From: an uncultured Candidatus Saccharibacteria bacterium
GTDB taxonomy: Bacteria; Patescibacteriota; Minisyncoccia; Ryanbacterales; HO2-45-13
DNA length: 64,000 bases
Reading direction: 5' to 3'
Assembly (NCBI GenBank): GCA_964354975.1
Contig: CAYHBS010000004.1
Span: 3,614-67,613, forward strand
Shown here: positions 8,001-51,263 of the stretch, piece after piece
Position numbering within the stretch: position 1 is the first letter of the stretch
How the letters are laid out: each line of letters opens with the position of its first letter
The notes under the pieces: generated by a model
Database searches by the model: none
Told to the model about the DNA's origin: nothing
The model's input: the letters and a program-made list of their open reading frames with translations, nothing else
Position numbers and translations under genes: made by a program

Positions 8001-8371
8001 ATCAGCGGAAAGTCTGCAAAAAAGATTTCTTGCGTTTTTACTTCACCCGTGCGCTTATTTGTGAGCTCCATGCGTACTCTTAGCGGAGCTTCATACGAAC
8101 GATTATTGGTACGCGCCTGGGTTTCATCCATTGGCGGTGCGTCGATCGTGTAGTCGACAAATGAGAGAGAAAATTCTTTTCCGGAAACGTCTTCTATTGG
8201 GCTAAACTCCGTAAATAATTCTTTCAGTCCCTGGTCAAGAAACCATTGATACGCCTCGAGCTGCACTTTGGCGAGGTACGGGAGCGGGGCAAGCGGTTCC
8301 CGATACTTCGAGAAATACTTCTTTGGAAGCATAGATGTTTGGGGCGCAACAGTACCATCCGGAGGACTCAC
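5099..8371 (-). CDS. rpoB: DNA-directed RNA polymerase subunit beta
   Basis: 1090 aa with conserved RpoB blocks. Lies immediately upstream of rpoC. Confidence 0.97.
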   Translation of the reverse strand: MSPPDGTVAPQTSMLPKKYFSKYREPLAPLPYLAKVQLEAYQWFLDQGLKELFTEFSPIEDVSGKEFSLSFVDYTIDAPPMDETQARTNNRSYEAPLRVRMELTNKRTGEVKTQEIFFADFPLMTKRGTFIINGVERVIVSQVVRSFGVYFTQQIVRGKRRFGAKIIPGRGVWLELESDVDGSVWVKVDRKRKIPVTSLLRVFGLKTDEEIKKAFSVVDNGELPHIENTLKKDTAKNVDESYIEIYKRIRPGDLATADNARQLIDGMFSAARYDISPVGRHKLNVRFQKLQKKDITDRTLTLSDLVNTVSEIIRKNNSPTETPDDIDHLGHRRIRGMGEMLQNRLRVGLARMERHIRDRMSILEPETVTPLQIVNSRPFMTVLKDFFLTNQLSQFMDQTNVLSELEHKRRLSALGPGGLTRERAGFEVRDVHTSHYGRICPIETPEGPNIGLVGHLAIYASINSLGLIETPYRKVEKGVIKQEIKLMTAFEEAEHVIAHAGVAYDAKGKLSDERVEARTAGRFGIFDRSEIEYIDVAPEQIFSIATGLIPFLAHDDANRALMGSNMQRQAVPCVKADPPLVGTGMETRAAEDSGQVVLAEEDGKIIEIDASKVVVQTGSKKHVYPLSSFLRSNTSSTFHHTPRVQKGDKVAKGQLLADNSSTRDGDLALGQNLLVAFLSWGGANYEDAIILSERVLKDDRFTSVYIEEFTMDVRETKLGDEITTPDIPNVGEEKLKDLDSEGVVRIGAEVRPGDILVGKISPKGEIDLTPEERLLHAIFGDKARDVKDTSLRVPNGKGGRVIGVKLFSRENGDRLESGVIKRIHVEVAQLRRIQVGDKLAGRHGNKGVISKVLPEEDMPHLEDGTPVDIILNPLGVASRMNIGQILETHLGLAAHTLGYRAVCPSLAGPTENEIKDELEKAGFPRSGKVSLFDGRSGEQFDQDVMVGYIYMLKLHHMVEDKIHMRSIGSYSLITQQPLGGKAQGGGQRFGEMEVWALEGYGAAYMLQEMITIKSDDVTGRAAIYDSIVRGEQKKSPHVPTSFHVLVHELKGLALDVVINYRESEPEEEEERERPMYGARREKVELNFDNE

Positions 8372-8624
8372 CGGAAGGTCATGACGCCCAAAAAAGTATT
8401 ATGCGCACGTAATAATGGAAAACGAAACGTTTGGTTCAGTACACATGGTTGCCTGATACACCGATAAGCATATGAAAATAAAAGAGCCCCAAAGAGTCAC
8501 CCGGGTTATGCACTAGGTTAAGTTGACGTTATACGGCAAACACGCTACTTGCATTCTACCTATAATATCCTCCGTGTCAAGTTACGTGCCCCCGGATGTG
8601 GATAACATGTGGGGTGCCGGTGGA

Positions 8625-8699
8625 TTACGCCCGGAGCGCTTTTCCCTGCTTCCAAGTCATCCAGGTAACGAGGAGTGGGCCCTCACCTACGAATACCTT
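8625..8699 (-). pseudogene. Remnant duplicate of the secF 3' end (encodes ...KVFVGEGPLLVTWMTWKQGKALRA*)
   Basis: 30 nt (8646-8678) are near-identical to secF codons for PLLVTWMTWKQ at 9410-9442, with degraded similarity further upstream. The fragment is intergenic. Confidence 0.5.
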
Positions 8700-8718
8700 A
8701 GCTTAGAGACACTACTTT

Positions 8719-9330
8719 TTATTTTATCAGTATGGAAATCTCCCTTTTTCTATCTGTTGTCGTTACGTACTCTAACTTTTTTGAATGTGTAAAGCCTATT
8801 TCTCGAAAAACCATCTCCCATTCATCAAAATAAAAAAACGAAGGGCTATAACCTGAAAAGGCATTGTATGGTGCCCCGATGGCTGGATTGTCCAAAATAA
8901 CTATGCCGCCATCATTCAATAACTTATATGCCTTCTCTAAAACTTTTTTTTGCTGATTTTTATCAAAGTCACATATCACTGACCAAGGAAAAAGAACGGC
9001 ATCGAAATCTTTCCCTTCATAATCCATAAATGAGCACAGAAACAATATTTCTGATGGATGAAAACCTTTCTCTAAAAGATACTTTGAAAACTCGTCGAGA
9101 TATACCTGCTGAACATCGATACCAATATATTCATGTCCCTCAATAAAAAACCTTCCCAGCCTCCCCGTGCCACACCCAACTTCTAATACTTTATTTTTCC
9201 CCAACAATAATTTACTAAAGTACTGAAAATCAATCGGGGTATTTCCTCCAAGACCAGCTAATCTCGCATACTCACTCAAAATTTCTGGAGAAATCGTATT
9301 ATAAAACTTTTTTACTACCTCAAGGTCCAT
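8719..9330 (-). CDS. Class I SAM-dependent methyltransferase
   Basis: Motif I VLEVGCGTGRLG and an acidic motif II. The ORF is AT-rich relative to its neighbours. Confidence 0.8.
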   Translation of the reverse strand: MDLEVVKKFYNTISPEILSEYARLAGLGGNTPIDFQYFSKLLLGKNKVLEVGCGTGRLGRFFIEGHEYIGIDVQQVYLDEFSKYLLEKGFHPSEILFLCSFMDYEGKDFDAVLFPWSVICDFDKNQQKKVLEKAYKLLNDGGIVILDNPAIGAPYNAFSGYSPSFFYFDEWEMVFREIGFTHSKKLEYVTTTDRKREISILIK

Positions 9331-9392
9331 GTCAAAATTATTGGATTAAATCTGAAAAACTACTATACCGATACGCCTTTCATTAATGTACA

Positions 9393-10295
9393 TTACGAAC
9401 TCCGCCTCTGCTTCCAAGTCATCCATGTTACCAGCAGAGGAGACGCTACAAAGATCGAGGAGTAGGTACCGAATGAGATACCGAGAATCAGTGCGAGTGA
9501 GAAGTATTTGACCGTTGATCCCCCAAAGAAAAACACTGCAACAAGTACCAGCACCGTTGTGAGTGAGGTATTGATTGAACGCGCAATCGTTTCTTTAATG
9601 CTCCGTTCAACCACTGCGTCAAACGCAAGTGAAGGGTAGCGAAGCAGATTTTCTCTTACGCGATCGAAGACAACGATAGTGTCGTGAATTGAAAATCCAA
9701 GTACGGTCAATAGCGCCGAGACAAATAGCACATCAATCTCGACTCCGTAAAAATGTCCGAGCACTGCAAATACTCCTGTGGGAATGAGAATATCATGGGC
9801 AAGTGCAATGATCGCCGCGCCCGCGTACACCCATGATGAAATTTTGTACGACACTTTTCGAAATGCAAAAGCGATGTAACAAAGAATGGCAATCACGGCG
9901 ATCGCAATAGCAGTTAGTGATTTTTGTTTGAGCTCACGTCCAATAGTGGGGCCAATAGTATCAAAACGCAGCTCCTTCACGTTCCCTTCCCCCGAAGCAG
10001 CAACAATACTTGAAAGAAGCGCCTGGTGCTCGGCCTCGGTGAGTGTACGCGTACGGATGAGAAATCCAGCGTCCCCCGTTGGCTGAACCGTTGCGCCGGC
10101 AATCCCTTTTGCGGTAGTGGCCGATTCAATGACCTGCCGGTCTGGACGAGTCATACTGTATTCAATTTCTAGAATTGATCCTCCGGTGTAGTCAATTCCG
10201 AGCTTCAGGCCGTACTGCACAATTGCCCCGAGACTCACGATCATGAGTATGGCCGCTGCCGCGAAGTAGATATTTCGATTTTTGACAATTTCCAT
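9393..10295 (-). CDS. secF: Protein translocase subunit SecF
   Basis: Polytopic membrane protein with SecF family blocks, following secD. Start chosen at MEIVKN; the ORF track extends to 10331. Confidence 0.88.
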   Translation of the reverse strand: MEIVKNRNIYFAAAAILMIVSLGAIVQYGLKLGIDYTGGSILEIEYSMTRPDRQVIESATTAKGIAGATVQPTGDAGFLIRTRTLTEAEHQALLSSIVAASGEGNVKELRFDTIGPTIGRELKQKSLTAIAIAVIAILCYIAFAFRKVSYKISSWVYAGAAIIALAHDILIPTGVFAVLGHFYGVEIDVLFVSALLTVLGFSIHDTIVVFDRVRENLLRYPSLAFDAVVERSIKETIARSINTSLTTVLVLVAVFFFGGSTVKYFSLALILGISFGTYSSIFVASPLLVTWMTWKQRRSS

Positions 10296-10299
10296 AAAG

Positions 10300-11598
10300 T
10301 TACTTTTTTGATTTATCGCCCATGAGCACACGCATGCGATCTGTTTCGTTTAACTGTACTGCGCGAAGAAACATCCGCGTCACAACAATTGCTGAAAACA
10401 TACTCACGAGAACTCCGATTCCGAGGGTTAGTGCGAATCCTTTCACAAAGCTGGTACCAAAGTAATACAGAATGGTGGACGTAATAATGCTGGAAGTATT
10501 TGAGTCGCGAATCGAAGACCATGCACGATGAAATCCTTCTTCCACTGATCCTTTAATTGTCTTACCGAGTCTTAGCTCTTCTTTTGTGCGCTCAAAGATG
10601 AGCACGTTTGCGTCCACCGCCATTCCGACCGAAAGAATAAATCCGGTCATGGCAGCGGCAGTGAGTGTCACCGGAAGTAATTTAAATATGACAAGTGAGA
10701 GCGAAATATAAATACACAGTGCAAGTACCGCCACAAGTCCCGGTAATCGGTAATAGAGCAACATAAACAGCATGACCGCAATGACACCGACAATCCCTGC
10801 GCGAAATGTGTCCGAGAGTGCGCGCTCCCCAAGCGTGGATTGCACCGTCTGCTGTCCTATCAGTTCGACATTGAGCGGAAGTGCCCCAGCATTGAGACTG
10901 CGCACAAGCGCATTTGCTTCTTCAATAGTGAAGTTTCCTGTAATCACCGCCTGTCCTCCGGTAATTGGTTCGTTCACCATTGGGATACTCACCGGAGCGC
11001 CATCAAGATAAATAGCGATGCGCTGACCCACATACTGCGTAGTAAGTTCTTCAAAAATTTTTGCCCCTTCGTCGTTCAGAATAAGTCCGACTTGCGGAGA
11101 TTGTGTTTGTTGTTGGTATTCTATGCGTGCCCGCTTCAAATATCTTCCGGTCAGCGCGCTTGGAACATACACCTCCTGTGGAGTGCTGGTGGCGCCTTCT
11201 CCGGGAATCATCATGGGCACGCGAAATTCGAGATACGGAGTAGCGCCGATTTGCTGAATTGCTTGATTAATATCTTTAATTCCTGCGAGCTCTACAATGA
11301 GACGCTGTTCTCCTGCACTGCTCGCAACTTGCACGATCGGCTCGGACACGCCCATAAAATTCACGCGGCGCTCAATGGCGTCGCGTAAACTCGCAACCGC
11401 ATCTGTAACATCCTCCGGAGCAACCGTCGTTGTATCAATGCGATATGTTAAATGTGCGCCACCGGCAAGATCAAGCCCGAGTACATAGTCTGGGATAAAC
11501 CGATCAAGCGGCCCTTGTCCAAATATCGGAAACGCAACATACGCCGCAAGTATTCCACCAAGGAGCACCAGCGCGGCAATCGTACGAGGTGATTTCAT
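10300..11598 (-). CDS. secD: Protein translocase subunit SecD
   Basis: 432 aa with an N-terminal TM, a periplasmic domain and a C-terminal 6-TM bundle typical of SecD. Confidence 0.9.
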   Translation of the reverse strand: MKSPRTIAALVLLGGILAAYVAFPIFGQGPLDRFIPDYVLGLDLAGGAHLTYRIDTTTVAPEDVTDAVASLRDAIERRVNFMGVSEPIVQVASSAGEQRLIVELAGIKDINQAIQQIGATPYLEFRVPMMIPGEGATSTPQEVYVPSALTGRYLKRARIEYQQQTQSPQVGLILNDEGAKIFEELTTQYVGQRIAIYLDGAPVSIPMVNEPITGGQAVITGNFTIEEANALVRSLNAGALPLNVELIGQQTVQSTLGERALSDTFRAGIVGVIAVMLFMLLYYRLPGLVAVLALCIYISLSLVIFKLLPVTLTAAAMTGFILSVGMAVDANVLIFERTKEELRLGKTIKGSVEEGFHRAWSSIRDSNTSSIITSTILYYFGTSFVKGFALTLGIGVLVSMFSAIVVTRMFLRAVQLNETDRMRVLMGDKSKK

Positions 11599-11604
11599 GA
11601 ATGA

Positions 11605-12027
11605 TTATTTGATTTCAATGCCCATGGAACGCGCGGTACCGGCAATGATTTTTTCTGCGGCTTCCACATCGTTTGCATTGAGATCCTCCATTTTGCGTTC
11701 TGCAATCTGTCGAAGTTGCGCTTTTGAGATACTCCCCACTTTTCCGGTGAGCGGATTGCCCGCTCCCTTCTCCACCTTCGCGGCTTTGCGGAGTAAATCT
11801 GAAGCCGGAGGAGTTTTTAACTTAAATTCAAACGAACGATCGGTAAAGATCGTAATTTCTACCGGAATAATATCGGTACCCTTATCTGCGGTAGCCGCAT
11901 TAAACTTTCCAACAAAATCGCCGATGTTGATACCGTGCTGTCCGAGTGCGGGTCCTACGGGAGGCGCCGGATTTGCTTTTCCCGCGGGGATTTGAAGTTT
12001 TACAATTGTCTTAATTTCTTTAGCCAT
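11605..12027 (-). CDS. rplK: 50S ribosomal protein L11
   Basis: [35 protein letters not shown] is the canonical L11 N-terminus. Confidence 0.95.
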
Positions 12028-12947: not shown

Positions 12948-13757
12948 TTATGCGACACGCGCCTGACGTTTTTCAGTCATCAGAGCGAGAGCTCCTTTGT
13001 ATCGCCCTTTCCCAAGAAAGATTGGGTAGAAACTTCTTGTCGCGTACAATTTTATTCCTTGGTGAGAACCGATGTGCGCGCCCCGCTCAATGCGCTCAAA
13101 GTCACGCAGATGTGGATTCTGTCGAAACGGCTCGGGAACATCATACTTCCCAATAACCGTGTACAACGTCTTTCGGGGAAATAGTTGCTTGGTCCCGCGC
13201 AACATGCCGCGGTTAATCAACAACTGCTCGACATGCGCGAGTGCCTTTCGGTACTGGTGACCAAGCTTATTCGGTCCGTACTCGATAGAAATGCCAAGCG
13301 GAACATGGCTGATGAGCGCGCCCTTCGCATATATGTGCGCAGGCACATACATCACTTTTTTCACTGGAAATTCCGCGAGCAGTCTTTTCGTACGCGCATT
13401 CCACTTTGTCACGATCGCGAGACTGTCAATGCGCGAATTCGTACCATGAATATCGATAACGAGATCGAATTCGCGAAGTGCGCGGAAAATATTGCGCGCA
13501 AGCTGATGTTCCCTGGTCTTTCCTTTCACGGGAAATATTCTATTCAAATCGTAGCTAAATTCACGTTTTTTGTGCGCGTGAGCAGAAGGATGCGCAAGAA
13601 AACCTGTCAAACTCCCGCTCATCAGATCGCACCTTATCAATTCCTTGCAAACCTTCATACCGATAATCTCATCTCCGTGCATGCACGCAAGGATCGCCGC
13701 CGACGGGCGCGCGTTTCCTTTTTTTAAAATTGTTTTTGGATGTGCTTTTATCTTCAT
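12948..13757 (-). CDS. Succinylglutamate desuccinylase/aspartoacylase family zinc hydrolase
   Basis: ACMHGDEIIG and DIHGT zinc-ligand motifs. Start trimmed to MKIKAHPKT; the ORF track's first 61 residues look non-coding. Confidence 0.7.
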   Translation of the reverse strand: MKIKAHPKTILKKGNARPSAAILACMHGDEIIGMKVCKELIRCDLMSGSLTGFLAHPSAHAHKKREFSYDLNRIFPVKGKTREHQLARNIFRALREFDLVIDIHGTNSRIDSLAIVTKWNARTKRLLAEFPVKKVMYVPAHIYAKGALISHVPLGISIEYGPNKLGHQYRKALAHVEQLLINRGMLRGTKQLFPRKTLYTVIGKYDVPEPFRQNPHLRDFERIERGAHIGSHQGIKLYATRSFYPIFLGKGRYKGALALMTEKRQARVA

Positions 13758-13824
13758 CTGAAAAGCTCGATCAGTAACGAAAACTTCGCAACTAATCGGA
13801 TGTTGCTCGGAATTGCAAAACGGC

Positions 13825-15897
13825 TTACACGTCGAGATTTTTGACGGACTTTGCGCGGCTTTGAATGAAGTGTTTGCGCGGCCCCACTTCCGCACCCATG
13901 AGTACGTCAAACACAATATCCGCCTGCTTCGCGTCATCAATAGAAACTTTACGGAGATGGCGCGTGGAAGGATTCATGGTGGTCTCCCATAACTGATCCG
14001 GGTTCATCTCTCCAAGTCCTTTGTAGCGCTGCATCGTCACACCCTTGAGTGCGGGATCTTGCATTTCCTGCGTGATGTCTTCTGATTCTTGTTGAGAATC
14101 TTCTATTGCATCGAGTATCGAGGGCTTCTTGCCTTCTTTTTCAGCTTTATCCGCCTTGTCTTTCTCCTCTTTTTCTTCTTTCAGTTTTTTAAATTCGGCA
14201 AGAATACGCTCTTTATCGGCGTCCACGAATGCGTATTCCACTCTCTTTCCTTTTTGGATACGGTAGAGAGGCGGCTCTGCAATGTAGAGAAAACCTTGCT
14301 CAATAATCGGCATGTAGTAGCGATAAAACAATGTCAGCAGGAGTGTACGAATATGCGCGCCGTCCACGTCCGCGTCTGTCATAATCACGATCTTGTGATA
14401 ACGGAGTTTTGAAATATCAAACTCTTCGCCAATACCTGCGCCCATCGCAATCACGAGCGCGCGCACCTCGCTGGAGGCAAGCATCTTATCGAGACGCGCG
14501 CGTTCGACATTTAAAATTTTCCCACGAAGCGGAAGAATCGCTTGAAATTCACGCGAACGTGCTTGCTTTGCAGATCCTCCCGCAGAGTCTCCTTCCACTA
14601 TAAATATTTCCGAATCTTCCGCATTTTTTGACTGGCAGTCTGCGAGTTTGCCAGGGAGCGTAAATCCGGAGAGCGCACCTTTACGCAGAATTGTTTCTTT
14701 TGCGGCTTTTGCGGCGCGACGTGCTTTTGCGGCAAGAATGACCTTTCCAATCATTGCGCGCGCATCCTGTGGATGTTGCTCGAGAAATTCGATGAACGAA
14801 GCAGAAAATATTGAGTCCACCGCGCTTCGCGCTTCTACCGATCCAAGTTTTGCCTTCGTCTGTCCTTCAAATTGCGGATCGCGAATTTTAACGGAAATAA
14901 TTGCCGAAAGCCCCTCGCGTACGTCCTCGCCGGTGAGATTTTCTTCATCTTTTTTGAGAATCTCGTTTTTCCGTGCGTAATCATTGAGCACGCGCGTGAG
15001 TGCGGTACGAAACCCCGTCAGATGCATTCCTCCTTCCGTTGTATGGATGTTATTTGCGAATGAAAGCTCGTGTGATTGTAAATCGTCAACGTACTGCAAC
15101 GCTACTTCAACTTGTACTCCTTCTGCTTCTTTTGCAGTGTAAAACGCATTTGGATGCACTGGCTGAAAATGTTTTGTCAGTGACGCAATATACGCTTTTA
15201 CGCCTCCTTCAAAATGAAAGGTGAACGACGCGGGCTCTCCCTTACGCGCATCCACTACGCGAATCGTCACACCTGCCGTCAGATATGCCTGCTGGCGCAC
15301 ACGCGTAAGAATTGTATTCCAGATATACTCGGGCATTGTTCCCTCATCTCCAAAAATTTCTGGGTCTGGTTCGTAGATCACCGTGGTGCCTACGCGCGTG
15401 GCTTTTCCTTCTTTTTTAACTTTTGTGGTAGGAATTCCTTTTTTATATTCCTGTGTGTAGCGCTCTCCATCGCGCATCACTTCTACGCGCAGATACCGCG
15501 AAAGCGCGTTGACCACCGACACTCCCACTCCGTGAAGTCCCGCCGCCACTTTATATGAGTCCCCGCCAAATTTTCCTCCCGCGTGCAAAGTGGTGAGTAC
15601 GGTCTCGAGTGCAGATTTCTTTGTTTGTTTATGAATATCAACGGGGATACCACGACCATCGTCGGCAACGCTCACGCGATGATTGGGCAACAGTGTAATC
15701 GTAATAAATTTTGCATATCCCGCCATCGCCTCGTCAATCGAGTTGTCCACGACTTCCCAAATCAAATGATGGAGCCCATCAATGCCGGTGGATCCAATGT
15801 ACATTCCCGGGCGCTTCCGTACCGGATCCAATCCCTCAAGCACGGTAATATCACGGGATGTATATTCTGATTTTTTCTTTTCGTTTTTTGCCATCAT
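13825..15897 (-). CDS. gyrB: DNA gyrase subunit B
   Basis: GHKL ATPase N-terminus, Toprim domain and a C-terminal tail. The length fits GyrB. Confidence 0.95.
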   Translation of the reverse strand: MMAKNEKKKSEYTSRDITVLEGLDPVRKRPGMYIGSTGIDGLHHLIWEVVDNSIDEAMAGYAKFITITLLPNHRVSVADDGRGIPVDIHKQTKKSALETVLTTLHAGGKFGGDSYKVAAGLHGVGVSVVNALSRYLRVEVMRDGERYTQEYKKGIPTTKVKKEGKATRVGTTVIYEPDPEIFGDEGTMPEYIWNTILTRVRQQAYLTAGVTIRVVDARKGEPASFTFHFEGGVKAYIASLTKHFQPVHPNAFYTAKEAEGVQVEVALQYVDDLQSHELSFANNIHTTEGGMHLTGFRTALTRVLNDYARKNEILKKDEENLTGEDVREGLSAIISVKIRDPQFEGQTKAKLGSVEARSAVDSIFSASFIEFLEQHPQDARAMIGKVILAAKARRAAKAAKETILRKGALSGFTLPGKLADCQSKNAEDSEIFIVEGDSAGGSAKQARSREFQAILPLRGKILNVERARLDKMLASSEVRALVIAMGAGIGEEFDISKLRYHKIVIMTDADVDGAHIRTLLLTLFYRYYMPIIEQGFLYIAEPPLYRIQKGKRVEYAFVDADKERILAEFKKLKEEKEEKDKADKAEKEGKKPSILDAIEDSQQESEDITQEMQDPALKGVTMQRYKGLGEMNPDQLWETTMNPSTRHLRKVSIDDAKQADIVFDVLMGAEVGPRKHFIQSRAKSVKNLDV

Positions 15898-20181: not shown

Positions 20182-20205
20182 CCCCTAATTCGCGCGAATT
20201 AGGGG
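20182..20205. promoter_or_regulatory. Perfect 24 bp palindrome ccccTAATTCGCGCGAATTAgggg (copy 1)
   Basis: Self-complementary sequence between the arsR-like stop and the dus start. Confidence 0.5.
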
Positions 20206-20240
20206 TATATCATACCACCGCGCTGTTTATAATTACATTT

Positions 20241-20585: not shown

Positions 20586-20607
20586 CCCTAATTCGCGCGA
20601 ATTAGGG
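20586..20607. promoter_or_regulatory. Perfect 22 bp palindrome CCCTAATTCGCGCGAATTAGGG (copy 2), likely ArsR-family operator
   Basis: Identical to copy 1. Lies about 70 bp upstream of the arsR-like start. Confidence 0.5.
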
Positions 20608-20734
20608 ACATAGTACACGGCGGAGGCGTACTATCAATCGCAGCAACGGAGGAAAAACGAGGATACCGCGATCTATGATAAAGAAACGTATCTGTGAGGA
20701 TGCGCTCTTGCCGACGTGCTCCCCCATATACTAC

Positions 20735-32361: not shown

Positions 32362-32383
32362 TTTGTTGCGGGACCGGGATTTG
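32362..32383. repeat. Direct repeat copy A, tttgttgcgggaccgggatttg (22 bp perfect, with about 50 bp of imperfect extension)
   Basis: Identical 22-mer at 37315-37336. Confidence 0.6.
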
Positions 32384-35811: not shown

Positions 35812-37404
35812 ATGCAGACTCCAAAAGGAATCATCTATTGCAGGGTGTCTTCTCAAGACCAGGTATCTGGGACTTCTTTAGATAGCCAACAAAAAGCATG
35901 TTTGGAATATGCAGAAACAAAAGGTATTAAAGTTGAGAAAATATTTGTCGAAAAAGGAGAGTCAGCCACTGCCGCAAATAGAGCGGAACTGATAAAAGCA
36001 TTGAACTTTTGTGGAGACAGAAAGGGTCAGATTTCGGCATTTATTGTTTGGAAGATTGATAGATTTGCGCGAAATACAACTGACCACTTTGGCTTACAGG
36101 CACAATTAATTAAATTTGGGACATCATTACATTCTGTTACCGAACCTATCGATAAAACTCCTATCGGAAAGATGATGGAAACCATGCTAGCCGGATATGC
36201 TCAGCTTGAAAATGATATTAGGCGGCAAAGATGCGAGGGGGGTATGCAGCGCAAAATTGCAGAAGGCATTCGACCGTGGAAACCACCACTGGGCTATGCC
36301 GTTCCACCAAAGACTGAGCGGAGGAAAACCAAGGCAGATGTGCGTGACCCCGAGCGTTTTCTGCTTGTACAAAAAACATTAAAGGCATATGCCACAGGGG
36401 CTTATTCCATAGCTAATTTAACCCAGGAAGCGACTAAACGGGGTCTTCGCACTCGTACTGGGAAGCCTATGCGCATTCAGCTTCTAGAGCGACTATTAAC
36501 AGATAAGTATTATGCGGGAATATTAACTGACCCCTGGACCAAGAAAGAGTACCCCGGACTACATGAACCAATGATAACCCTTGAGGAACACCAGCACATC
36601 CAACTCGTAAAATCTGGCCTATCCAACAATGCAATTAATACACGAACCTATGCTCATCCAGATTTTCCACTTCGAGGGCTTTTGATTTGTGTGTGTGGCG
36701 TGAAATTGACCGCTGGTTGGACGAAAGGAAGAAACAACAAATACCCCTATTATCACTGTAAACAAAAAGGATGCGTGCACTTTGGACATGCAATTCCTAA
36801 ACATAGGCTGGAGGAAAAGTTTCTTATTTTTCTCAAGCGCATTACCCCTCAGGAGCATTTCATAAAACTTTTTGAAACCATTGTGCTAGATGTATGGCGA
36901 AACAAACATCAATCACACACACAACAACGCATGCATTATGAAGCGGAAATCAAAAGATTAAATTCGCAACGAGAGCGATATATTGAAATGCGCGCAAATG
37001 GAGAGATTAACCGCGAGGAATTTAAAATCTATAGTGAACGCTTAGAAAACCAGATAACGGGTCTTACTATTTCGAGAAACGAAGAGAATATTGAAGAGTT
37101 AGACATGGGGACATTACTCTCCTATACAACACAATTCATGCGTAATTTATCTCGGCAGTGGCAGGATATGCAGGATATAAAACAAAAACAGCGGCTCCAG
37201 AAATTGGTTCTACCGGAAGGGATTATGTTTGATAAATCCACCGGAGAGCTTGGAACCGCTGTTTTGTCGCCTGTTTTCAGGATGAATCAGGTATTTGAGG
37301 ATGGCGAATCCGACTTTGTTGCGGGACCGGGATTTGCACCCGGGTCTGGAGGTTCGCACATTCCCAATATTTCTAATGGGGCTGGACTATACCATCTTCC
37401 ATAA
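35812..37404 (+). CDS. Large serine recombinase (resolvase/invertase N-terminal catalytic domain plus recombinase and zinc-ribbon/coiled-coil domains)
   Basis: YCRVSSQDQ catalytic Ser motif, DRFARN, recombinase domain and a Cys cluster. 530 aa. Confidence 0.9.
   Translation: MQTPKGIIYCRVSSQDQVSGTSLDSQQKACLEYAETKGIKVEKIFVEKGESATAANRAELIKALNFCGDRKGQISAFIVWKIDRFARNTTDHFGLQAQLIKFGTSLHSVTEPIDKTPIGKMMETMLAGYAQLENDIRRQRCEGGMQRKIAEGIRPWKPPLGYAVPPKTERRKTKADVRDPERFLLVQKTLKAYATGAYSIANLTQEATKRGLRTRTGKPMRIQLLERLLTDKYYAGILTDPWTKKEYPGLHEPMITLEEHQHIQLVKSGLSNNAINTRTYAHPDFPLRGLLICVCGVKLTAGWTKGRNNKYPYYHCKQKGCVHFGHAIPKHRLEEKFLIFLKRITPQEHFIKLFETIVLDVWRNKHQSHTQQRMHYEAEIKRLNSQRERYIEMRANGEINREEFKIYSERLENQITGLTISRNEENIEELDMGTLLSYTTQFMRNLSRQWQDMQDIKQKQRLQKLVLPEGIMFDKSTGELGTAVLSPVFRMNQVFEDGESDFVAGPGFAPGSGGSHIPNISNGAGLYHLP
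37315..37336. repeat. Direct repeat copy B, tttgttgcgggaccgggatttg, inside the 3' end of the serine recombinase gene
   Basis: Identical to 32362-32383. Confidence 0.6.
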
Positions 37405-39577: not shown

Positions 39578-40270
39578 ATGGGTATGCGAATCCGCACTCA
39601 TCGGGTCGTGAACAAAGACTTCTTTAAAGAGTGGGCCGCTCCGATGGCATATGTGCTTGGATTTTTCATGGCGGATGGATACATGACACATAATTCCCGA
39701 GGCGCACACTTTCTCTGTATGCAAATTACTGACAGGAATCTGCTATACAAGCTCCGCGCCGCAATGCGATCCACGCACAAAGTGAGCGCGAGAACCACGC
39801 ACGACGCCGGGAAACCACTGTACCGATTACAAATCGGCAGCAAAGAAATGTGTGATGATTTGCGCAAACTCGGCATCAGAAATGGGAAAACGCACAATAT
39901 GCGCTTACCAAATGTACCACAAAAATATGTTTCGGATTTTGTTCGCGGGTACTTTGATGGAGACGGAAACGTTTGGGTTGGACTTGTCCACAAGGAGCGT
40001 CAACGATCATTACTTGCTATCAACACCGTATTCACTTCGTGCTCCGGACATTTTCTGCGCGTCCTCAAAAAAACGCTGAAAGAGTATGAAATCCACGGCC
40101 ATATGAGCAACGCAAACTCGTACTGTAGGCTCTCCTACAGCATTCATGCGTCGCTAAAGTTACACGGATTGATGTATGGAAAGTATCATGGTAATCTGTT
40201 CCTGCGCCGAAAACGAAAAGTATTTGAGCGATATGTTCGAAACCGAAATGCGGCTGTAGCTCAACGGTAG
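39578..40270 (+). CDS. LAGLIDADG family homing endonuclease (double-motif)
   Basis: Motif 1 YVLGFFMADGYM and motif 2 VRGYFDGDGNVWV. A -10-like gatataat lies upstream. The 3' end overlaps the tRNA-Asp. Confidence 0.8.
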   Translation: MGMRIRTHRVVNKDFFKEWAAPMAYVLGFFMADGYMTHNSRGAHFLCMQITDRNLLYKLRAAMRSTHKVSARTTHDAGKPLYRLQIGSKEMCDDLRKLGIRNGKTHNMRLPNVPQKYVSDFVRGYFDGDGNVWVGLVHKERQRSLLAINTVFTSCSGHFLRVLKKTLKEYEIHGHMSNANSYCRLSYSIHASLKLHGLMYGKYHGNLFLRRKRKVFERYVRNRNAAVAQR

Positions 40271-40321
40271 AGCGCTCGCCTGTCACGTGAGAGGTCGTGG
40301 GGTCAGCACCCATCAGCCGCG
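40250..40321 (+). tRNA. tRNA-Asp(GTC)-like with non-canonical T-loop (GTCAGCA)
   Basis: Perfect 7 bp acceptor gcggctg/cagccgc, canonical D-arm tagctcaacggtagagc, anticodon loop ctGTCac. The T-stem needs a G-U pair and the T-loop lacks T54/A58. Confidence 0.5.
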
Positions 40322-40490
40322 CAGTATAAAAAAACCGCCGAAGGGCGCGTTTTTTTGTTTTGCGGTAGAGGAAGTGATCTGCATCACTTCCGTATGGGTG
40401 CTGACGGACGGAGCTGTGTATTAACACCAGTTAAAACCAGCGAGTCGGGGTAGCGAACATTTCGAGCGAGTGCGAGAAATGATTCGTGAC

Positions 40491-40511
40491 CAGCACCCAT
40501 CAGCCGCGCCA
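40491..40511 (+). repeat. Duplicated tRNA-Asp 3' end (cagcacccatcagccgcgc plus CA completing CCA), direct repeat of 40304-40322
   Basis: 19 bp perfect copy with imperfect extension back to tcgtg. Only this copy encodes CCA. Confidence 0.55.
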
Positions 40512-48955: not shown

Positions 48956-49140
48956 ATTTTTGTAATTGATAATGATAAACCACCTAATAATATAAATAGA
49001 GTTTGTTATATATTGCTCGACCAGTTAGCTTTGTGCCCCTTTATTATACTTCCTTACGAAATAAGGAAAAAATGGGGTGTGGACAACGCCGGCCCCGCAT
49101 GTGGGGGCGAAATGGCTAATATCTCATTGACCTAATGCCT

Positions 49141-49340
49141 AAAATCATTAAATCACAAGAACATTAAATCATGAGATTACGAGAACATGAAAACACGAGA
49201 ACATGAAAACACGAGAACATGAAAACACGAGAACATGAAAACACGAGAACATTAATTCATAAAATCACAAGAACAGTACATCACGAGATCATGAAAACAT
49301 TAAATCATGAAAACACGAGATCATAGAAACAGGTTCGGCC
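49141..49340. repeat. Tandem repeat region: 4 perfect copies of acgagaacatgaaaac (49179-49242) plus degenerate atcacaagaacat/catgaaaac-type flanks
   Basis: Direct reading of the sequence. Related motifs recur at 49897-49918 (inverted) and 51164-51195. Confidence 0.7.
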
Positions 49341-49370
49341 TGCTACCAGCGGTAAGCCATGTGTATCAGT

Positions 49371-51142: not shown

Positions 51143-51263
51143 GGGGAAGAATTTCTAATTTCTAAATCATTAAATCACAAGAACATGAAAACATGGGAGC
51201 GGGGAGGGGGTTGAAGGCCACACATCTCATGGGGCAATTAATCATATCAATCACCTGCGGTGA

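Follow-up and report, generated by a model that had tools for sequence, protein, structure and literature searches.

Organisation of the secF-rpoB locus

The region between secF and rpoB in the window, i.e. the whole 64,000 nt stretch of DNA analysed here, raises the question of how a methyltransferase gene of deviating base composition came to lie between an apparently intact secF gene and a second copy of the secF 3' end. On the minus strand, the genes of this region are arranged in the order pheT, gyrB, an AstE/AspA-like gene, secE, nusG, rplK, secD, secF, a 203-aa ORF, rpoB and rpoC. The identity of secF was established by matches to TIGR00966 (SecF, 272 bits) and to the Pfam family SecD_SecF_C, together with the 300-aa gene calls in public contigs. 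The longest secF ORF reaches a GTG codon at 10331, its stop codon occupies positions 9393-9395, and the C-terminal sequence of its product is ...SSIFVASPLLVTWMTWKQRRSS*. The features on which the following analysis is based, all of which are located on the minus strand, are listed below.

10300-11598, minus strand: secD, between rplK and secF
9393..10295, minus strand: secF in its present form, 300 aa from ATG (MEIVKN...), C-terminus ...PLLVTWMTWKQRRSS*
9408..9440, minus strand: upstream repeat copy, CCT CTG CTG GTA ACA TGG ATG ACT TGG AAG CAG, within functional secF
9393..9407, minus strand: new secF tail and stop, AGG CGG AGT TCG TAA (RRSS*), in place of an ancestral tail of six residues
9331..9392, minus strand: AT-rich spacer from the secF stop to the methyltransferase start, 62 nt, 29% GC; the foreign DNA starts here
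8719..9330, minus strand: inserted methyltransferase gene, 203 aa, class I SAM-dependent, 35.8% GC
8679..8718, minus strand: stretch from the methyltransferase stop to the downstream repeat copy, 40 nt, holding the right-hand junction; its VFVGEG reading is not SecF-like
8646..8678, minus strand: downstream repeat copy, CCA CTC CTC GTT ACC TGG ATG ACT TGG AAG CAG; the putative displaced native end begins here
8625..8645, minus strand: displaced native tail and stop, GGA AAA GCG CTC CGG GCG TAA (GKALRA*)
8553..8580, minus strand: rpoB promoter, TTGACA-16-TAGAAT, 11/12 match, ~45 nt past the displaced stop, conserved in relatives
8333..8552, minus strand: conserved rpoB 5' leader; the distance from the displaced stop to the rpoB ATG (8332) is 292 nt
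Left junction of the insert: AGGCGGAGTTCGTAATGTACATTAATG
Right junction of the insert: GGTGAGGGCCCACTCCTCG
Reconstructed empty site, 9408 joined to 8645: ...AAGCAG followed by GGAAAAGCG

The peptide PLLVTWMTWKQ is encoded by both repeat copies on the same strand. This was the central observation of the original prediction, whose coordinates for the secF end and for the repeat at 8646-8678 were all correct, and nucleotide alignment of the two copies revealed 28/33 identical positions at a spacing of 762 bp. Within the repeat, an exact 18-nt block (TGGATGACTTGGAAGCAG) is present at 9408-9425 and 8646-8663; with up to two mismatches allowed, this 18-mer was found twice in the window, compared with 0.02 occurrences expected from 100 window shuffles, and PLLVTWMTWKQ represents the sole same-strand peptide repeat of such kind in the 64 kb. 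The minus-strand segment 8625-8702 translates as AKVFVGEGPLLVTWMTWKQGKALRA*. A degraded similarity had also been proposed upstream of the repeat (VFVGEG compared with IFVAS), but with ~7/12 nt matching and one indel it does not clearly exceed the level of chance, and the sequence was found in no SecF homologue. An 11-mer microhomology, CCNACTCCTCG, shared by 8669-8679 and 9456-9466, was dismissed as being at the level of chance for a region of such size, and an Rfam search of 8200-9600 returned nothing meaningful.

The methyltransferase ORF has a GC content of 35.8% and a GC3 of 0.34, compared with 47-51% and 0.43-0.55, respectively, for the ten neighbouring genes, which confirms its reported AT-richness. 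It deviates by 13 points from its ~49% GC context and is thus compositionally foreign. Among the ORFs of the insert, it is the only one with a family match, a single other ORF on the opposite strand being without a Pfam match.

Comparison with the nearest relatives

The locus was compared with that of three related genomes, L099, L104 and L011, whose SecF proteins are 90, 84 and 79% identical, respectively, to that of the window and which represent the only three outgroups. All three share the gene order of the window, but in each of them secF is followed by a spacer of ~290-305 nt and then by rpoB. The methyltransferase gene is absent between secF and rpoB in 3/3 of these nearest relatives, with the rpoB promoter and leader placed directly after secF. 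SecF relatives at greater distance fall into lineages of the Parcubacteria type, and no closer insert-free relative was found in the 90% SecF cluster, which consists of four members only, the two 302-aa ones being of the L099 type.

The SecF proteins of the three relatives are 302-303 aa in length (302 in the two closest, 303 in the third) and end in KQKRTLRA*, KQRRTLRA* and QQGRVKKA*, the last six residues being KRTLRA*, RRTLRA* and GRVKKA*. The downstream copy in the window ends in KQGKALRA* and is followed by TCCAC...ATCCACATCCGGGGG...TTGACAC...TAGGTAGAATG; this tail and the DNA beyond it are orthologous to the secF tails and spacers of the relatives. Consistent with this orthology, MAFFT aligned the secF end of L011 with the downstream copy and not with the functional one. 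Since its tail and spacer match those of the relatives, the downstream copy is the displaced native secF end. When the 762 bp were deleted in silico, a 302-aa SecF and a 292-nt spacer were obtained, which corresponds to the ancestral layout. By this comparison, the RRSS* tail of the present secF is new and the insertion is the derived state, which upholds the original proposal of a gene insertion into the 3' end of secF, with secDF on one side and rpoB on the other. The insertion left the strong rpoB promoter intact.

Divergence of the two secF 3' ends

The two repeat copies differ at five positions, all of which are third positions of the PLLVT codons (CCT CTG CTG GTA ACA versus CCA CTC CTC GTT ACC) and all of which are synonymous. 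The six codons that follow are identical in both copies, and the tails beyond these are unrelated (RRSS* versus GKALRA*). Five randomly placed differences would be confined to third positions with P=0.002, and the probability that each of five random substitutions is synonymous is ~3e-4. At the first and second codon positions of the repeat, 0/22 were changed between the copies, compared with ~5-6 changes expected, by our own estimate, had the untranslated copy drifted for an equally long time. The restriction of the differences to synonymous third positions indicates that both copies were translated as part of secF during their divergence, i.e. that they evolved as coding sequence in different lineages.

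The extent of divergence is in line with that of diverged orthologues within the clade, given that 3/8 degenerate codons are identical between the repeat copies and that the fraction of conserved degenerate codons identical between the window and each relative ranges from 0.38 to 0.45. The orthologous 33 nt of L099 encode the same 11 residues and exhibit four synonymous differences from the downstream copy. Among 120 SecF homologues, the WMTWKQ peptide was observed only in this small clade, which implies that the second allele was derived from a close relative. Each of the PLLVT codons of the downstream copy is used by at least one of the three relatives, compared with 0/5 of those of the functional copy; as the relatives are near synonymous saturation, this codon usage is no more than weakly indicative of the functional secF end being the imported one. 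The two repeat copies thus resemble a pair of secF-end alleles from different lineages, one being a presumed replacement end and the other the displaced native end.

Ancestry of secF upstream of the insert

Three-taxon site-pattern counts were obtained for the window, L099 and L104, the relatives being near saturation, and the numbers of window-odd and L104-odd sites were compared between segments of the locus, as listed below.

Minus strand: secF 5' part, window-odd:L104-odd = 39:66
9408..9825, minus strand: secF 3' part (last 392 nt in the segment counts, ~420 nt up to 9825), candidate donor-derived anchor, window-odd:L104-odd = 40:21
Minus strand: tail plus spacer, window-odd:L104-odd = 23:39

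The secF 3' part differed from each of its two flanks (Fisher, P=0.0007 and 0.002). When only the left end was allowed to vary and the right end was kept at the insertion, the optimal left boundary was located at 9825 (permutation P=0.028), and segments ending near the insertion were the most extreme across the 4.8-kb locus. The last ~420 nt of secF may therefore be of weakly aberrant ancestry, which fits, in a supportive though not decisive manner, a donor-derived anchor.

Other mosaic stretches are present at the locus, and rplK also exhibits an excess of window-odd sites. In three contigs (L001, L003 and L178), ~35 substitutions (~4%) are confined to 10032-10990 (~1 kb), and few or no differences from the window were found in the rest of secDF and near the insertion; this ~1-kb patch represents an imported recombination tract, the occurrence of which at the locus speaks for the recombination favoured below. 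A reading in which the identity of L178 to the window is limited to the cassette side was discarded, as longer contigs show an isolated ~1-kb patch (covering secD and the secF 5' part) that is unlinked to the insertion.

Characteristics of the methyltransferase cargo

The 203-aa protein scores 44.5 bits against Methyltransf_25 (Pfam cut-off 27) and also exceeds the cut-offs of Methyltransf_12, _31, _11 and _23. Its motif I, the GxGxG SAM-binding loop, reads VLEVGCGTGRLG and is invariant in eight family members, across which 52 columns are invariant in total. An AlphaFold2 model (pLDDT 91.6, pTM 0.90) displayed alternating strands and helices, and its top fold matches in the PDB were all SAM methyltransferases of the Rossmann type (Foldseek E ~1e-10, TM-score 0.65-0.75); PDB profile matches were generic (E 2e-9 to 1e-4). 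The fold and the GxGxG motif I are held in common with the uncharacterised small class I SAM methyltransferases 2p8j, 3d2l and 1wzn, with glycine sarcosine N-methyltransferase and with NTMT1, but identity to these proteins is only 13-23% and no substrate-specific family was matched. With respect to substrate, NCBIfam, PDB sequence and fold searches yielded generic matches only, every methyltransferase match in NCBIfam being far below its cut-off. The protein is, accordingly, a class I SAM-dependent methyltransferase of generic type. The NCBI name L-histidine N(alpha)-methyltransferase (EgtD-like) was rejected: the score against PF10017 (Methyltransf_33), 21.7 bits, does not reach the cut-off of 23, and the match covers only profile positions 61-175 of 304 in a query of 203 aa.

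The family is rare, comprising eight clusters in a word search and 22 representatives at E < 1e-30 among 1.84 billion. Homologues in other Patescibacteria occupy unrelated contexts, i.e. before recG, beside rplS and near pilM and pilN. As the homologue in L096, a Patescibacteria genome of 37% GC, matches the composition of its host, the gene may have arisen in members of the phylum with a low GC content. Between secF and the methyltransferase gene, neither a promoter nor a terminator match was obtained, for which reason this gene is probably transcribed by read-through from secDF.

Origin of the insertion

The explanation that we favour, and to which we assign about an even chance, is homology-facilitated illegitimate recombination with DNA carrying a replacement secF 3' end together with the methyltransferase gene, by which the native end was displaced. 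In outline, this would have been a recent horizontal acquisition at the last codons of secF, in an ancestor of the Hainich groundwater Patescibacteria population. The incoming DNA would have consisted of a secF 3' end (...PLLVTWMTWKQRRSS*) from a related lineage and of the low-GC methyltransferase gene. On the left side, a homologous crossover may have occurred within secF, perhaps near 9825, and on the right side an illegitimate joint may have formed immediately before the resident codons for PLLVTWMTWKQ. The resident secF end (PLLVTWMTWKQGKALRA*) would thereby have been shifted 762 bp downstream rather than replaced, leaving an untranslated fossil directly before the untouched rpoB promoter, and SecF would have remained functional with a tail of four residues, formerly six. 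Such displacement predicts donor ancestry just upstream of the insert and native DNA past the fossil. At this locus, the resident 3' end is kept downstream with a short conserved piece, and the new 3' end and the cargo are contiguous with secF. The derived state of the insertion, the native origin of the downstream copy, the foreign composition of the cargo and the purely synonymous differences are shown by the data, whereas the donor and the recombination pathway are inferred; no RRSS-tailed donor lineage was sampled outside this population. It should be mentioned that the model needs a donor in which the low-GC gene already lay beside its own secF, which moves the primary insertion one step earlier. 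The exact 18-nt block and the abrupt tail switch could, as a counter-point, mark a crossover inside the repeat, of either the single-crossover or the site-specific type.

Homology-facilitated illegitimate recombination leaving orphaned 3' regions has been proposed for Rhs, CdiA and type VI secretion effector loci (Kirchberger et al. 2017, PMC5361080, where Jackson et al. 2009 and Poole et al. 2011 are cited on C-terminal displacement). In those loci, as proposed here, a new 3' end and its cargo enter by homology in the conserved upstream part, and the resident 3' end is moved downstream, where it keeps a short conserved stretch as an untranslated fossil. Unlike those loci, the target here is the housekeeping gene secF and not a polymorphic toxin gene, only a few C-terminal residues were replaced without functional diversification, the cargo is a methyltransferase gene and not an immunity gene, and there is one event in place of an array. 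The process is also documented in natural transformation (de Vries and Wackernagel 2002; Prudhomme et al. 2002; Meier and Wackernagel 2003, as cited in PMC5361080), and a related study is available for E. coli (PMC3240628). As in those transformation events, one homologous anchor and one illegitimate joint would here have brought in non-homologous foreign DNA; the experimental anchors closely matched the recipient, whereas the divergence between donor and recipient implied here is high and the pathway is read from sequence alone.

The 762 bp could, in an unlikely but more substantial alternative than any of the others considered, constitute a small cassette that integrates site-specifically, or what is left of a larger element after stripping, with an att site that mimics the secF 3' end. 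In this reading, recombination would have taken place at or near the 18-bp core, with a surrogate secF tail being supplied and the recombinase acting in trans or having been lost. Such an origin would account for the exact 18-nt direct repeat that flanks the insert, the abrupt tail switch after it and the restored secF reading frame (RRSS*), and the order of five differing codons followed by three identical degenerate codons has a probability of ~1/56 under a model without a junction. A gene for a large serine recombinase is furthermore present in the window (35812-37404), within an island of low GC that has exact 22-nt direct repeats on either side, but this gene, the nearest recombinase gene, lies ~27 kb away without a demonstrated link, and none is present in the 762 bp. 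The ends of the insert carry neither inverted repeats nor an attC-like structure; an integron gene cassette was rejected on the latter ground, there being no imperfect inverted-repeat (attC) structure at the cassette end and the flanking genes being secF and rpoB. The site does not appear to be recurrent, since a second SecF C-terminus downstream of secF was found in 0/46 other Patescibacteria loci (46 usable among 87 secF loci scanned). An 18-mer scan of metagenome contigs returned 72 matches, essentially all by chance, and no empty-site or alternative-cassette version of the locus. Four methyltransferase homologues in other genomes are without flanking repeats, the homologues share no upstream or downstream flanks with the window cassette (scores equal to those of shuffles), and viral contigs yielded only generic SAM-motif matches to the family. 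An untranslated element arm would, moreover, not be expected to differ from secF at synonymous sites only. Staphylococcal SCCmec and ccr-less pseudo-SCC elements reside at the rlmH (orfX) 3' end, and genomic islands at the 3' ends of tRNA genes. With these elements, the locus has in common a position at a conserved gene's 3' end, flanking direct repeats of short length and a coding capacity kept by element-borne sequence, and some SCC-like elements also lack a recombinase of their own; it differs from them in the absence of a recombinase in or adjoining the insert, in the lack of repeated use of the site and in the synonymous, coding-like differences between the repeat arms. A bolder version, in which the 762-bp unit is a minimal integrase-less Patescibacteria mobile cassette with an 18-bp core at the last codons of secF and its own surrogate SecF C-terminus, moved in trans by, for example, the large serine recombinase ~27 kb away, is regarded as a long shot. 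If it were true, the essential gene would survive the insertion by virtue of the surrogate end, and precise excision could still occur and restore the stranded native end.

A Campbell-type single crossover, in which a circle carrying the methyltransferase gene and a short secF 3' fragment of a related species recombined inside the 18-nt block, is deemed improbable, more so than the site-specific cassette in general. Like the two mechanisms considered above, it could yield a replacement end, a cargo gene and a stranded native end. Single-crossover integration is a classic source of duplicated homology flanking an insert (PMC3240628) and would account for the identical 18 nt and the tail switch, but 18-33 nt is very short for a RecA-dependent crossover, the donor fragment would read AKVFVGEGPLLVTW... 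with an in-frame stop before it, unlike any SecF, and aberrant ancestry upstream of the repeat is not predicted. Plain duplication of the target site at insertion, followed by drift of both copies, had been the original prediction and is very improbable in light of the present data. Same-orientation direct repeats do flank a compositionally foreign gene, but 33 nt far exceeds the duplications of the transposase type, the sequence past the 18-nt block is unrelated, and neither terminal inverted repeats nor a transposase was found at the 762-bp insert. A duplication would start out identical and then decay randomly in the unselected copy, a course that is disfavoured by the synonymous-only pattern (5/5 differences synonymous and 0/22 first or second positions changed in an untranslated copy, P ~0.002-0.004). 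The least probable of all readings, and one that we consider to be effectively refuted, is that the order secF-methyltransferase-rpoB is the ancestral one, with subsequent loss in the relatives, or that the locus is an assembly chimera. The small number of outgroup genomes speaks for the former, but a second secF end orthologous to the real ends of the relatives would not have resulted from an ancestral arrangement, and the 13-point GC deviation stands against it as well. Across 10 contigs, which come from several samples and were assembled by two pipelines (Hainich groundwater 0.1-µm filter-fraction assemblies and Logan assemblies of other runs), the 1.4 kb around the insert show 100% identity, which argues against an assembly artefact or chimera.

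Implications

The locus carries a footprint of horizontal gene gain that is clear but of an ordinary kind, and it exemplifies a process of a known class. Patescibacteria possess small, streamlined genomes, and their modes of gene gain are poorly documented; here, the gain of a single gene was traced inside the highly conserved cluster secE-nusG-rplK-secDF-rpoBC, with an ancestral state that can be reconstructed to the base. The analysis also flags a rare methyltransferase family that is encountered in differing gene neighbourhoods across Patescibacteria genomes, and the footprint at secF points away from a transposon and towards recombination with DNA of a related lineage.

Displaced-3'-end footprints and other repeats

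The footprint of a displaced 3' end seen at secF is represented by another example of the same type at a tRNA gene, where the final 19 nt (40304-40322) were found again as an exact copy at 40491-40509, 187 bp downstream.

40250-40322: tRNA-Asp

Outside the window, the exact 18 nt block common to both copies of the secF 3'-end repeat was observed at positions 209-226 of a 3,048 bp contig from Hainich groundwater well H43 (L119), within a small, unrelated ORF whose peptide product resembles a membrane helix (...LLAGLAMWMTWKQASNH...). This is one of 72 database matches to the block, most of which are attributable to chance, and similarity between this contig and the secF repeat ends with these 18 nt.

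Furthermore, two other types of repeat were observed in the window. A 27 nt palindromic sequence (CCCTAATTCGCGCGAATTAGGG...) occurs twice, at 20183-20209 and 20586-20612 (403 bp apart), and a tandem array of ~230 nt with an 8/16 nt period (CATGAAAACACGAGAA) is located at 49114-49345, with a related 35 nt copy at 51164-51198, 2 kb downstream.

A large serine recombinase gene and a direct repeat

The low-GC zone at 27-40 kb (38-43% GC) contains a pair of direct repeats; the rightmost of the two falls within the 3' end of a large serine recombinase gene.

32362-32383 and 37315-37336: exact 22 nt direct repeat TTTGTTGCGGGACCGGGATTTG, bracketing 4,953 bp
35812-37404, + strand: large serine recombinase gene (530 aa; Resolvase, Recombinase and Zn_ribbon_recom domains)

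The stretch and the repeats that bracket it may represent an integrated element and its attachment sites.

Variability within the conserved cluster

Between gyrB and secE, the conserved cluster that holds secF and rpoB varies at a second point.

12948-13940, - strand: AstE/AspA-like gene (succinylglutamate desuccinylase/aspartoacylase), between gyrB and secE

This gene, whose GC content is host-like, is absent from the relative L099, in which gyrB is directly followed by secE, while an unrelated 135 aa ORF occupies its slot in the relative L104. The placement of secDF (10300-12027, - strand) between rplK and rpoB, a position usually occupied by rplA, rplJ and rplL, is common to the window and all three closest relatives.

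Among co-occurring strain variants (L001, L003 and L178), a ~1 kb patch (window 10032-10990) limited to the secD 3' end and the secF 5' end was shown to carry ~35 substitutions (~4%). Outside this patch, these contigs are nearly identical to the window; the differences, patch included, total 44-73 per 11-14 kb. The patch looks like a recombination tract or the product of mixed-strain assembly.

The rpoB 5' leader

Long conserved blocks were observed in the region preceding rpoB across the relatives, whose synonymous sites are saturated.

8333-8552, - strand: rpoB 5' leader, ~230 nt (L099 8975-9213; L104 8975-9203; L011 1818-2047)

Identity with L099 reaches 85-90% over most of its length, compared with 73-80% for the neighbouring coding DNA. 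The leader includes a terminator-like hairpin, CCCGGGTGACTCTTTGGG, with a T-run (8505-8488); it returned no Rfam match, and its variation across the relatives is too low for covariation. In this clade, the leader may be an uncharacterised regulatory element of rpoBC.
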